64,000 nt of DNA from assembly GCF_058153355.1 (NCBI RefSeq), contig NZ_CM177019.1. One strand, 5' to 3'. The notes beneath the pieces were generated by a model. That model ran no database searches, was not told the DNA's origin, and saw nothing but the letters and a program-made list of their open reading frames with translations. This document shows, piece after piece, positions 1 through 54,639 of this stretch. The first letter of the stretch is position 1, and each line of letters opens with the position of its first letter. Both the position numbers and the translations under genes were made by a program.

Positions 1-791
1 TCAGGAACTGCACCGCTTCACGTACTTCAACCGCGTTACCGGCACTGGAGGCCAGCACCTGATTCATGTCGGTGAGTAGCGCGGTGGTGCGCACGCCAGC
101 GCCGTTAGCCACGCCAACAATCGCTTCGGCAAGGGCTTCAGAGAGTTCGTAGGTCGGCATAAATGCACCGCTACCGACTTTCACGTCCATCACCAGTGCA
201 TCCAGACCTTCCGCCAGTTTCTTCGCCAGGATCGAGGCAGTGATCAGCGGGATGGAATCCACGGTTGCGGTAATATCGCGGGTCGCATAGAAACGTTTAT
301 CCGCCGGAGCCAGTGAACTGGTCTGGCCAATAATCGCCACGCCGACGTCTTTAATAATTTCGCGGAAACGGTTGTCATCTGGGAAGATGTCGAAGCCAGG
401 GATGGATTCCAGTTTGTCGAGCGTACCACCAGTATGGCCGAGGCCGCGACCGGAGATCATCGGAATATAGCCGCCGCAGGCAGCGACCATTGGCCCCAAC
501 ATCAGCGAAGTCACATCGCCGACGCCGCCGGTCGAGTGTTTATCAACAATCGGGCCATTCAGATGCAGGCTTTTCCAGTCGAGAACGGTTCCTGAATCTC
601 GCATCGCCATCGTCAGCGAGACACGCTCCGGCATTGTCATATCGTGGAAGAAAATGGTCATCGCGAGGGCGGCAATCTGCCCTTCGGAGATAGTGTTGTC
701 GCGAATGCCGTTGATAAAGAAGCGAATTTCTTCATCGCTCAGCGCATGACCATCACGTTTTTTACGAATAATTTCTTGTGCGAGAAACAAG
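1..791 (-). CDS. deoA: thymidine phosphorylase, N-terminal ~263 codons (3' end lies before window start)
   Basis: Minus-strand translation from a TTG at 789-791 reads [24 protein letters not shown]..., and bases 1-200 translate to ...[45 protein letters not shown], both matching DeoA as remembered. Sits directly downstream of deoC as in the deoCABD operon. Confidence 0.9.
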
Positions 792-957
792 GTAACCTCC
801 CGTGGAATAAGTTTGAAGGCGTTGTTGCCAGATGGCGGATGTTGTTATTGCCTGATGCGATGCTGACGCATCTTACAAGGCCTACACGGCACTCGACCCG
901 TAGGCCGGATAAGGCGTTCGCGCCGCATCCGGAATCCACCCTCTGGCAAAAGGCAGC

Positions 958-1737
958 TTAGTAGCTGCTGGCGCTCTTACCGTCGCCGTGGCCCAGCGCT
1001 TTCAGCAGGCTTGCCAGCAGGCTGGAAGCACCAAAGCGGTAGTGACGCGCATCTGCCCAGTCAGCACCGAACAGTTCATCTGCAATCGCGAGATATTTCT
1101 GCGCATCTTCCGCAGTACGCACGCCGCCCGCCGGTTTGAAACCAACGGTTTTCTCTACGCCCATATCACGGATCACTTCCATCATGATGCGCGCGCTTTC
1201 CGGCGTCGCGTTCACTGCTACTTTACCGGTAGAGGTTTTGATGAAATCAGCACCCGCTTTGATGGAGATTTCAGACGCTTTGCGGATCAGCGCTTCGTCT
1301 TTCAGTTCGCCGGTTTCAATAATCACTTTCAGCAGTACGTTCGCTGCTGCGCAAGCCTCTTTACAGGCTTTCACCAGATCAAAACCAACCTGCTCGTTAC
1401 CCGCCATCAGCGCACGGTACGGGAACACCACATCAACTTCATCGGCACCGTAGGCGATTGCCGCGCGGGTTTCGGCCAGCGCGATTTCGATATCGTCGTT
1501 ACCGTGTGGGAAGTTGGTTACCGTAGCGATACGGATTTCCGGGGTACCCTGCTCTTTCAGCGTTTTGCGAGCAATCGGGATAAAGCGAGGATAGATACAG
1601 ATAGCGGCGGTATTACCTACCGGAGTTTTGGCCTGATGACACAGGGCGATCACTTTCTCGTCGGTATCGTCGTCATTCAGGGTGGTCAGGTCCATCAATT
1701 TCAGTGCACGCAGGCTGCTTGCTTTCAGATCAGTCAT
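958..1737 (-). CDS. deoC: deoxyribose-phosphate aldolase
   Basis: ORF 958..1761; internal ATG at 1735-1737 gives the 259-aa DeoC sequence ([35 protein letters not shown]...). Confidence 0.95.
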
Positions 1738-1781
1738 TTCATTCTCCTGGCTTGTCGCCAATAAAATTCACCTTGCGAGTT

Positions 1782-1797
1782 TGTTAGTATTCTAACA
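1782..1797. promoter_or_regulatory. DeoR operator-like 16-bp palindrome TGTTAGTATTCTAACA (deoP2 region)
   Basis: Near-perfect match to the DeoR operator consensus TGTTAGAA/TTCTAACA, 45 bp upstream of the deoC start. Confidence 0.7.
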
Positions 1798-1995
1798 TCG
1801 ACTCCGCAACACACTTCGATATACATCACAATTAAGGAAATCTACTTACAAAATTGCATTACTGTAATGCGATCTGGTTCAAATAATTCACTTTCAAATG
1901 AATGCGTCAGTGGTGGCAAACGCATCAGGATCAAAGTGAACATCACGAAACTTCTTACAATGGCGCATCACCTTCGGCATAAAAAGGAACAGAAG

Positions 1996-3546
1996 ATGCC
2001 CACTTCTCATGAAAATGCACTGCAACAACGTTGCCAGCAAATTGTCACCAGTCCGGTACTTAGCCCGGAGCAGAAGCGCCATTTTCTGGCGCTGGAAGCA
2101 GAAAACAATCTGCCTTACCCACAGCTTCCTGCCGAAGCCCGCCGCGCGCTGGATGAAGGTGTAATCTGCGATATGTTTGAAGGTCATGCGCCGTATAAAC
2201 CGCGCTATGTCTTACCCGATTACGCCCGTTTTTTGGCCAACGGTTCCGAATGGCTGGAGCTGGAAGGCGCAAAAGATCTTGATGACGCACTCTCTCTGCT
2301 GACCATTCTTTACCACCACGTTCCTTCGGTCACATCGATGCCGGTCTACCTGGGGCAACTGGATGCGTTGTTGCAACCGTATGTTAGAATTCTAACACAA
2401 AACGAGATCGATATTCGAATAAAACGTTTCTGGCGTTACCTCGACAGAACCCTGCCAGACGCCTTTATGCACGCCAATATTGGCCCATCTGATTCACCCA
2501 TTACCCGTGCGATTTTACGCGCAGACGCAGAGCTGAAGCAGGTTTCACCGAACCTGACTTTTATCTACGATCCTGAAATCACCCCTGATGACCTGCTGCT
2601 GGAAGTGGCGAAAAACATCTGTGAATGTAGCAAACCGCACATCGCCAACGGTCCCGTGCATGATAAAATTTTCACAAAAGGGGGCTACGGGATTGTGAGC
2701 TGTTACAACTCACTGCCGTTAGCGGGTGGTGGCAGTACGCTGGTACGCCTTAACCTGAAAGCCATTGCCGAGCGCAGTGAATCGCTGGATGATTTCTTTA
2801 CGCGCACTCTACCGCACTACTGCCAGCAGCAAATCGCCATCATCGATGCGCGGTGTGAATTCCTCTATCAACAATCACACTTCTTTGAGAATAGCTTCCT
2901 GGTGAAAGAAGGGCTGATTAACCCTGAACGTTTTGTGCCAATGTTTGGCATGTACGGACTGGCAGAAGCGGTTAACTTGTTGTGTGAGAAAGAAGGAATT
3001 GCCGCACGTTACGGTAAAGAAGCCGCTGCGAATGAAGTGGGTTATCGCATTAGCGCGCAACTGGCGGAGTTTGTCGCCAATACCCCCGTGAAATATGGCT
3101 GGCAAAATCGCGCCATGCTACACGCACAGTCGGGGATAAGTTCCGATATCGGCACCACGCCGGGCGCGCGTTTGCCGTATGGCGATGAGCCAGATCCGAT
3201 CACCCATCTGCAAACTGTCGCCCCGCATCATGCTTATTATTATTCCGGCATCAGCGACATTTTGACGCTCGACGAAACCATCAAACGTAATCCGCAGGCG
3301 CTGGTACAGCTTTGCCTCGGTGCCTTTAAAGCCGGAATGCGTGAATTTACCGCCAATGTCAGCGGTAACGATCTGGTTCGCGTTACCGGTTATATGGTGC
3401 GTTTGTCGGATTTAGAAAAATATCGTGCCGAAGGTTCACGTACCAATACCACCTGGCTGGGAGAAGAAGCCGCACGCAACACTCGTATTCTGGAACGCCA
3501 GCCGCGCGTGATAAGCCATGAACAGCAGATGCGCTTTAGTCAGTAA
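1996..3546 (+). CDS. yjjI: glycyl-radical-enzyme-like protein YjjI
   Basis: ORF 1867..3546; start at the [15 protein letters not shown] Met gives 516 aa as remembered for YjjI; followed by an overlapping radical-SAM activase gene. Confidence 0.85.
2382..2397. promoter_or_regulatory. DeoR operator-like perfect palindrome TGTTAGAATTCTAACA (deoP1 region)
   Basis: Perfect 16-bp palindrome exactly 600 bp from the 1782..1797 site, matching the known ~599 bp spacing of deo O1/O2; lies inside the yjjI reading frame. Confidence 0.7.
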
Positions 3547-4381
3547 GATTATCCCCTTCTCCTGCGTTGACGGGCCAGGCAGTCGTCTGGCTCTGTTTTT
3601 ACAGGGCTGTAATCTGCGCTGCAAAAACTGTCACAATCCGTGGACAATGGGGCGCTGTAATGATTGCGGGGAGTGCGTGCCACAGTGTCCGCATCAGGCG
3701 TTGCAGATTGTTAACAGCAAAGTAGTGTGGAACGCAGCCGTCTGCGAGCAGTGTGATACCTGCCTGAAGATGTGTCCACAACACGCTACGCCGATGGCGC
3801 AATCCATGAACGTGGACGAGGTGCTTAGTCACGTCCGCAAAGCGGTGCTGTTTATTGAAGGGATAACGGTAAGCGGCGGTGAAGCCACGACCCAGTTGCC
3901 GTTTGTGGTGGCGCTGTTTACTGCTATCAAAAATGATCCACAACTGTGTCATCTCACCTGTCTGGTGGACAGTAACGGCATGTTGAGCGAAACCGGCTGG
4001 GAAAAATTACTCCCAGTGTGCGACGGCGCGATGCTCGACCTCAAAGCGTGGGGTGGCGCGTGTCATCAACAGCTAACCGGACGCGATAATCAGCAGATCA
4101 AGCGCAGCATTAGTCTGCTTGCCGAGCGCGGCAAACTGGCAGAACTGCGTTTGCTGGTAATCCCAGGCCACGTGGATTATTTGCAGCATATCGATGAGCT
4201 GGCGGCGTTTATCAAGGGACTTGGCGATGTTCCGGTACGCCTGAACGCGTTTCATGCCCACGGCGTGTATGGCGAGGCGCAAAGCTGGGCGAGCGCCACG
4301 CCGCAAGACGTTGAGCAATTGGCTGATGCGTTACGGGAGCGCGGGGTGAGCCGGTTGATATTTCCGGCGCTGTATTTGTGA
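3518..4381 (+). CDS. yjjW: glycyl-radical enzyme activating protein (radical SAM, ferredoxin-like Cys clusters)
   Basis: 287-aa ORF with CxxxCxxC-type and multiple CxxC clusters; overlaps the yjjI stop; K-12 synteny. Confidence 0.85.
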
Positions 4382-54317: not shown

Positions 54318-54404
54318 GCGAAGGTGGCGGAATTGGTAGACGCGCTAGCTTCAGGTGTTAGTGTCCTTACGGACGTGGGGGTTCAAGTCCCCCCCCTCGC
54401 ACCA
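54318..54404 (+). tRNA. leuQ: tRNA-Leu (anticodon CAG), copy 1
   Basis: 87-nt sequence GCGAAGGTGGCGGAATTGGTAGACGCGCTAGCTTCAGGTGTTAGTGTCCTTACGGACGTGGGGGTTCAAGTCCCCCCCCTCGCACCA, matching E. coli tRNA-Leu1 with encoded CCA. Confidence 0.95.
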
Positions 54405-54432
54405 AAAACCACGTTGATATTGCTCGCACTGG

Positions 54433-54519
54433 GCGAAGGTGGCGGAATTGGTAGACGCGCTAGCTTCAGGTGTTAGTGTTCTTACGGACGTGGGGGTTCA
54501 AGTCCCCCCCCTCGCACCA
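54433..54519 (+). tRNA. leuP: tRNA-Leu (CAG), copy 2 (one C to T difference in the variable arm)
   Basis: Same 87-nt sequence except GTGTTCTTACGG instead of GTGTCCTTACGG. Confidence 0.95.
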
Positions 54520-54552
54520 AACGAGGCGATATCAAAAAAGTAAGATGACTGT

Positions 54553-54639
54553 GCGAAGGTGGCGGAATTGGTAGACGCGCTAGCTTCAGGTGTTAGTGTC
54601 CTTACGGACGTGGGGGTTCAAGTCCCCCCCCTCGCACCA
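54553..54639 (+). tRNA. leuV: tRNA-Leu (CAG), copy 3
   Basis: Identical to copy 1. Confidence 0.95.

Follow-up and report, generated by a model that had tools for sequence, protein, structure and literature searches.

Two palindromes that are very probably the DeoR operators of Escherichia coli deoCABD, one of them written into the codons of yjjI

The two 16-bp palindromes found upstream of deoC in the DNA analysed here, a single stretch of 64,000 nucleotides that we call the window, are very probably operators already known to bind DeoR and control E. coli deoCABD, namely O2 with its promoter P2 and O1 with its promoter P1, accompanied by the third operator, OE. A preliminary description of this DNA had picked out the pair, matched them in identity and spacing to deo O2 and O1, and placed the upstream one ~390 bp within the yjjI frame. 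All of this is borne out, since the palindrome at 1782-1797 has 1 mismatch and that at 2382-2397 is perfect, both agree with published operators at a spacing of 600 bp (599 in K-12), and O1 starts 386 bp after the yjjI ATG at 1996. The source stretch is the E. coli deoCABD/yjjIW region, inverted relative to the K-12 orientation, and the 1.2 kb surrounding the operators, when compared with 5426 complete E. coli genomes, finds matches of 95-99.5% identity in 5423. Gene coordinates (Table 1) were taken from an E. coli record of 99.5% identity as annotated in RefSeq, in which deoA and deoC both lie on the minus strand, and yjjI and yjjW are co-oriented on the plus strand and share 29 nt at their junction; we presume that yjjW is the operon partner of yjjI. 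An Rfam scan of positions 700-3700 returned no match within the operator region.

Table 1. Genes, operators and promoter elements of the deoC-yjjI region (positions in the window)
Feature	Position	Strand	Basis
deoC CDS, first gene of the operator-controlled deoCABD	958..1737	-	RefSeq; tblastn 100% to query
deoO2 (DeoR operator, promoter P2), TGTTAGTATTCTAACA; minus strand TGTTAGAATACTAACA	1782..1797		palindrome with 1 mismatch
Putative deoP2 -10 TAGAAT, preceded by TGn (extended -10), within O2	1789..1794	-	read from the sequence
Proximal CRP site of deoP2; minus strand TGTGATGTATATCGAA	1815..1830	-	same as the ETEC ChIP-seq site, PMC4287617
Distal CRP site of deoP2; plus strand TGCGATCTGGTTCAAA	1868..1883	-	sequence; 53-bp distance to the proximal CRP site
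Predicted yjjI promoter: FNR-like box 1921-1934, -10 TACAAT 1956-1961	1921..1961	+	conservation
yjjI CDS (YjjI-family glycyl radical enzyme, 516 aa), host of O1, P1 and OE	1996..3546	+	RefSeq
deoO1 (DeoR operator, promoter P1), TGTTAGAATTCTAACA	2382..2397		perfect palindrome
Putative deoP1 -10 TAGAAT, TGn upstream (extended -10), within O1	2389..2394	-	sequence
Conserved block 5' of the P1 -10; minus strand CCAGAAACGTTTTATTCGAA...	2407..2436	-	synonymous constraint, third strongest in yjjI
deoOE (third, upstream DeoR operator; best placement), TGATAAAATTTTCACA; yjjI codons 222-227	2661..2676		position, similarity, conservation
yjjW (activase)	3518..4381	+	RefSeq annotation, tblastn

The identification rests in the first place on the letters themselves. 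With up to 1 mismatch allowed, the palindrome occurs twice in the 64-kb window against a chance expectation of 0.00, as estimated from 100 dinucleotide-preserving shuffles of that same window. In addition, the primary literature, to the extent that it is quoted in PMC5326754, gives the DeoR palindromes as TGTTAGAA-TACTAACA and TGTTAGAA-TTCTAACA; going by that quotation, positions 1782-1797 are the reverse complement of the former and positions 2382-2397 reproduce the latter letter for letter. The O1-O2 distance given in the quoted portions of the literature is 599 bp, which is also the start-to-start distance in K-12 MG1655, and we find 600 bp here because of a 1-bp indel (an insertion in this strain) in the deoC-yjjI spacer. 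E. coli K-12 deoCABD is indeed the same locus, with identical operators, OE at the same 279 bp beyond O1, both CRP sites, and the deoC ATG at the same 45 bp past O2, and the present strain departs from it by that spacer insertion and a few point differences outside the operators. The K-12 regulatory region was described in a series of papers (Dandanell & Hammer 1985; Valentin-Hansen et al. 1986; Dandanell et al. 1987; Amouyal et al. 1989, as cited in later work), and the more recent literature includes DeoR ChIP-qPCR at the deoC promoter, together with the effect of inducer (PMC5326754), and a 'loopometer' study that describes DeoR acting on one operator at each of the tandem promoters, O1 and O2, with ~600 bp between them, with O1/O2/OE looping observed both in vitro and in vivo (PMC8053113).

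In the mechanism that we favour, O2 would cover the -10 of P2 next to deoC and O1 the -10 of P1, 600 bp upstream, with OE (2661-2676) serving as a third and weaker operator 279 bp past O1. A DeoR multimer that sits on two or three operators at once would loop out the DNA between them, and both P1 and P2 would be blocked in the looped state; the binding and looping in this scheme are adopted from the literature, as is the release of DeoR from its operators that deoxyribose-5-phosphate would bring about. P2 is under the further control of two CRP sites and CytR. Because yjjI-yjjW divergently adjoins deoC, P1, O1 and OE all fall within yjjI codons, and selection fixes the synonymous positions of yjjI at these sites, at a cost paid in rare codons and restricted amino-acid choice. 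The P1 leader would cross the first ~387 nt of yjjI in antisense and then run through the yjjI promoter, and the O1-O2 loop would enclose the predicted promoter of that gene.

P1 and P2 would both use extended -10 elements, and P2 is CRP-dependent. A generic σ70/terminator scan of positions 1600-2900 called neither of them, because a good -35 hexamer is absent from both. From the position of its -10, P2 transcription probably starts at ~1782, and by analogy P1 transcription may be placed at ~2382. When +1 is set at 1782, the deoP2 CRP sites fall at -40.5 and -93.5, which are the known CRP positions at this promoter, and the CytR operator is located between the two sites. PMC3454398 sets out how CRP and CytR are arranged at deoP2, and the proximal CRP site, which is conserved in our alignment A1, is listed under yjjI/deoC in a CRP ChIP-seq study of ETEC (PMC4287617). 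An ETEC CRP ChIP-seq 'site' inside yjjI (CGTACCGTCGGTCACA, at ~2319-2334) was considered and set aside, since the codons there vary freely and so do not hold a conserved site. In alignment A1, the half of O2 that bears the P2 -10 is invariant; natural variants of O1 are likewise confined to the half that does not carry the -10, and the P1 -10 reads either TAGAAT or TAAAAT. The block at 2407-2436, in which the rare codons CGA141 and ATA142 fall, is presumably the -35/UP region of P1, and the σ70 ChIP and RNA-seq work of Choe et al. (2019) places one deoCABD promoter 'in an upstream gene, yjjI'.

As for the third operator, OE is reported to sit ~300 bp further upstream of O1 (PMC8053113), and position, similarity and conservation together suggest that it is best placed at 2661-2676, where the third-best full-palindrome match in the 64-kb window (4 mismatches) is found. 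The preliminary description had instead proposed a possible third half-site, TGTTACAA, near 2701. The octamer is present at 2701-2708, but it is a chance match: at up to 1 mismatch there are 37 such 8-mers in the window against 42.7 expected, and the codons at 2701-2708 are unconstrained and vary normally. With chance-level occurrence, free codons and a better full match at 2661-2676, we reject 2701 as a third DeoR site.

O1 and OE sit inside a bona fide YjjI gene. It might be objected that the yjjI start is mis-annotated, with the true start beyond 2400, or that the gene is unexpressed, so that the operators would in truth be intergenic, and this we regard as vanishingly improbable. Against it, PF11230 matches the yjjI protein over residues 22-504 and over the whole of its profile (1-485 of 485; 732.6 bits, E=2e-220), and TIGR04040 matches residues 11-504 with 789.2 bits against a cut-off of 498.3, so that the family models begin at residues 22 and 11, respectively. 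For nearly every one of the 80 loci compared, with orthologues that are 71-99% identical, the tblastn alignment begins somewhere in residues 1-12; in addition, neither the ATG at 1996 nor its Shine-Dalgarno sequence varies across 14 genera, and codons 1-128 show the ordinary synonymous variation that is typical of coding sequence. A search for support for a yjjI start downstream of 2400 found none, and the earlier placement of the start upstream of 2400 holds. A longer yjjI ORF, from an ATG at 1867, was also considered and discarded, as this start is not conserved and frame-breaking indels occur 5' of 1996.

A comparison of the embedded sites took in 80 yjjI loci, from Escherichia to Proteus. 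yjjW lies beside yjjI in every one of them except L024, a locus too short downstream, and the divergent neighbour of yjjI is deoC wherever the locus reaches far enough, bar four Proteus loci; from Escherichia to Edwardsiella, deoC and yjjI keep their divergent layout together with the embedded sites. In 76 of the 76 deoC-adjacent loci O1 occupies one and the same codon position and carries 0-2 mismatches there, OE is at most 1 base off the E. coli sequence in 75 of these 76, and the distance between the two is 279 bp in all 76. O2, across the Enterobacteriaceae, carries 1-4 mismatches and stands 35-59 bp from the deoC ATG, and the O1-O2 distance, which could be followed in 72 loci, ranges from 567 to 612 bp with a mode of 600-601. 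These distances fall into clusters at ~568, 590, 600 and 612 bp, with the main cluster at 596-604, and the resultant lengths for helical phasing are only 0.3-0.56. In the four Proteus loci, where deoC is not adjacent and the yjjI neighbours are smp/serB/radA, the O1 position has 6-8 mismatches and the OE position 11-12.

A per-codon synonymous-entropy scan took in 69 distinct deoC-adjacent yjjI orthologues (7-codon windows, 2000 permutations). Entropy averages 0.66 over the gene, and none of the 2000 permutations went below 0.14; the lowest value in yjjI is that of OE (0.01, codons 222-228), the second-lowest that of O1 (0.087, codons 129-135), and the next-lowest, at 0.22-0.24, belongs to codons 138-147 just upstream of the P1 -10. 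O1 itself covers codons 129-134 (taT GTT AGA ATT CTA ACA), and the codons AGA131, CTA133, CGA141 and ATA142, which rank with the rarest in E. coli, are frozen; five of the nine rare codons in the whole of yjjI fall within codons 131-151 (scan P ~8e-4).

Could the intragenic palindromes be there for the benefit of yjjI itself, whether by forming a hairpin in the mRNA, by imposing a programmed pause at rare codons or as part of a protein motif? The palindrome could fold into a short hairpin in the yjjI mRNA, and AGA-ATT-CTA would slow translation. We think such a role very improbable. The sequence is exactly a DeoR operator, with its partner at the canonical 599/600 bp, and OE makes a poor hairpin yet is the more strongly frozen of the two. 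Residue 131 changes among R, K and G, with the DNA still only 1-2 mismatches from the palindrome. In Proteus, the matching peptide PYVG.LT is written with codons that are free to vary and the palindrome is absent; free codons and loss of the site together indicate that the constraint acts on the DNA and needs deoC next door.

It is also instructive to look at relatives in which yjjIW does not lie beside deoC, and three such deo regions were reached via DeoC homologues. In Pantoea ananatis (L082), the gene order is yjjU-yjjV-deoCABD with a 229-bp spacer, and two DeoR-like palindromes lie upstream of deoC both there (TGTTATAATAATAACA / TGTTATTATTATCACA) and in a second enterobacterial genome, L084 (TGTTATAATTATAACA / TGTTAGCATTTTAACA), spaced 142 bp and 175 bp apart, respectively. 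No third operator was seen in the deoC upstream region of either, and the region upstream of deoC in Providencia (L083) holds no DeoR-like palindrome at up to 4 mismatches. The compact deo regions of L082 and L084 thus resemble the present locus in having two DeoR-like palindromes upstream of deoC, and differ from it in that these are only 142-175 bp apart and fully non-coding, whereas here the distal one stands 600 bp away and inside yjjI. By inference from these comparisons, the two-operator logic would predate the 600-bp geometry, and yjjI codons would carry P1, OE and the distal operator in the lineage in which yjjIW lies directly beside deoC.

Our proposal for a yjjI promoter is based on conservation, because a scan with the FNR consensus is too permissive to be used alone (351 matches against ~274 expected). 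The FNR-like box has a good ATCAA half only; across 14 genera GGATCAA (1928-1934) and TACAaT (1956-1961) show no variation or almost none, with variable flanks, and the layout suggests a class II FNR promoter with a yjjI transcription start at ~1968. An FNR ChIP peak, which would correspond to window position ~1903 after allowing for the coordinate offset between genome versions, is known from the deoC-yjjI spacer. This peak, and the direct activation of yjjI by FNR, were reported by Myers et al. (PMC3688515). On the other side, from its inferred start the P1 leader would run ~645 nt to the deoC ATG (~2382 to 1738), and with the yjjI ATG at 1996 this puts ~387 nt of the leader antisense to yjjI. 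It would follow from this geometry that divergent transcription overlaps, if P1 is active as the literature says. The predicted yjjI promoter lies both inside the O1-O2 loop interval and in the path of the P1 transcript, and O1 and OE are located where a polymerase transcribing yjjI must pass.

It is possible to imagine that P1 and the DeoR sites inside yjjI have a second role in regulating yjjI-yjjW, with a measurable coupling of at least ~1.5-fold, an extension of the operator mechanism (not a replacement for it) that we consider possible but on the whole unlikely. With DeoR bound, the looped O1/OE/O2 complex would stand in the way of polymerase setting out from the yjjI promoter, either as a roadblock or by trapping it topologically, and with DeoR released, P1 would fire convergently into yjjI and cause collision or antisense interference; the outcome would be an excludon-like tie between deoxynucleoside catabolism and an orphan glycyl radical enzyme. 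The position of the predicted promoter (1921-1968) within the O1-O2 loop and on the P1 path speaks for such coupling, as do the presence of O1 and OE in transcribed yjjI and the retention of the divergent arrangement, with its embedded sites, from Escherichia to Edwardsiella. However, of 29 papers that name yjjI, the two that name deoC as well describe no coupling, the conservation of the sites is fully accounted for by deo control, and yjjI co-varies with anaerobic respiration genes. In addition, yjjI is reported to be FNR-activated and to go up anaerobically without deo inducer (PMC3688515), so yjjI is not strictly blocked by DeoR occupancy. The fuller version of this idea, in which DeoR looping across O2-O1-OE and P1 antisense transcription gate the FNR-dependent expression of yjjI-yjjW, and in which the arrangement has been kept for coupling as well as repression, is one that we put forward as a speculation and think distinctly doubtful. 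Control of deoCABD by DeoR remains the reading that we prefer for O1, O2 and OE.

The locus has well-known cousins. Auxiliary looping operators within coding sequence include lac O2 in lacZ and gal OI in galE, and the likeness is plain, in that one operator near the promoter and another far off inside an ORF are joined by a repressor multimer, so that the site is doubly constrained, by coding and by binding. The difference is that the operator within the gene is a downstream one in lac and gal, placed in the first gene of the regulated operon itself, whereas at deo it is upstream, in a divergent neighbour of unrelated function, that two operators and a whole promoter are found. Excludons, known from Listeria, are divergent operons with overlapping long 5' leaders, and their hallmark is reciprocal expression. 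Judged from positions, deo/yjjI would have an excludon-like geometry, with the P1 leader (~645 nt) antisense to the 5' part of yjjI and to its promoter; unlike an excludon, deo also has P2, the stronger promoter, which does not overlap yjjI.

The operators, their spacing and the looping have been textbook material since the 1980s and are thus already known, as is the existence of a deo promoter within yjjI, which Choe et al. (2019) stated. What we add is the placement of OE, the rejection of 2701 and the confirmation of the yjjI start, together with a quantification, across the family, of the synonymous fixation of O1, P1 and OE within yjjI. The deo O1/O2/OE system is among the founding examples of long-range repression through DNA looping, and it now also offers a clean and quantifiable case, over ~70 species, of regulatory DNA overwriting the coding sequence of a neighbour and forcing the rarest codons of the host gene. 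Annotation, codon-optimisation and recoding projects should respect the operators within yjjI. If the coupling prediction is true, it would open a first physiological route to the function of YjjI, an orphan glycyl radical enzyme, and if the gating is true, YjjI expression would be tied to deoxynucleoside availability, hinting that under anoxia the substrate of the enzyme may be a product of nucleoside or deoxyribose breakdown.

Between this strain and K-12 the spacing of the DeoR operators O1 and O2 is almost the same, at 600 bp and 599 bp respectively, the difference being due to a 1-bp indel (window ~1980-1985, compared with K-12 4617065-4617323) in an A-rich stretch just upstream of the Shine-Dalgarno sequence of yjjI, the glycyl radical enzyme gene. 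The Hafnia and Edwardsiella loci (L072, L073, L075 and L077) retain O1 and the further DeoR operator OE within yjjI, and their deoC-yjjI spacer is ~460-470 bp. Here the best O2-like site has 4-5 mismatches and lies 185-219 bp from deoC, which places O1 and O2 626-675 bp apart, and the organisation of the P2 promoter in these genera may differ.

Where yjjI is not the neighbour of deoC, as in Pantoea ananatis (L082), Providencia (L083) and a further enterobacterial locus (L084), deoC is preceded instead by yjjV or nupC. Two DeoR-like palindromes are found in non-coding DNA both in Pantoea ananatis (3302-3459) and in L084 (3219-3409), at spacings of only 142 bp and 175 bp, respectively; in Providencia there is no DeoR-like palindrome at ≤4 mismatches. 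The genes radA, serB and smp lie just beyond deoD-yjjJ-lplA in E. coli, whereas in Proteus mirabilis (L079, 528-3732) they are found upstream of yjjI, and the deo operon, with lplA and yjjJ, is therefore missing from that position in Proteus.

Within yjjI itself, our scan of synonymous entropy also picked out a fourth, weaker patch of constraint at codons 296-301, ~221 bp beyond OE, where the 7-codon entropy is ~0.28, compared with a mean of 0.66. Here TTTGAGAAT is a 7/9 match to a DeoR half-site, but the patch holds no palindrome. Synonymous variation is lowered, too, across the 29-nt overlap of yjjI with the activase gene yjjW, as would be expected if this stretch is dual-coding or carries a signal for translational coupling.

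Coordinates of features in the window
Feature	Position	Strand	Remarks
REP/BIME-like repeat arms	825-840 / 934-949 and 872-885 / 900-913		deoC-deoA spacer (825-949)
Terminator-like hairpin and T-run	2022-2034	-	P1 leader; GCAACGTTGTTGC AGTGCATTTT
ETEC intragenic CRP peak	~2319-2390		inside yjjI, close to O1/P1; CRP ChIP-seq (PMC4287617)
Fourth constrained patch	2881-2898		TTC TTT GAG AAT AGC TTC
End of yjjI, with the yjjW overlap	3514-3546		yjjI codons 507-516; yjjW start 3518
Three tandem tRNA-Leu(CAG) genes	54318-54639		arranged as E. coli leuV-leuP-leuQ cluster

Elsewhere, the spacer between deoC and deoA carries nested inverted repeats, and its Rfam naRNA4 matches, at 28.9 and 24.9 bits, stay below the gathering score of 59.5. 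The DeoR palindrome also has recurring pseudo-matches with 4-5 mismatches, at 54356, 54471 and 54591, and these are explained by the three tandem tRNA-Leu(CAG) genes.

Turning to the P1 promoter, its leader includes a terminator-like hairpin ~350 nt past the inferred start, antisense to yjjI codons 9-13, with a weak stem of 5 bp. CRP ChIP-seq in ETEC placed one peak within yjjI, 544 bp from the peak at the deoP2 CRP site (PMC4287617). The motif assigned to this intragenic peak is weak and the codons there lack conservation; speculatively, this peak may arise through cross-linking, as a ‘shadow’ cast by the O1-O2 loop.
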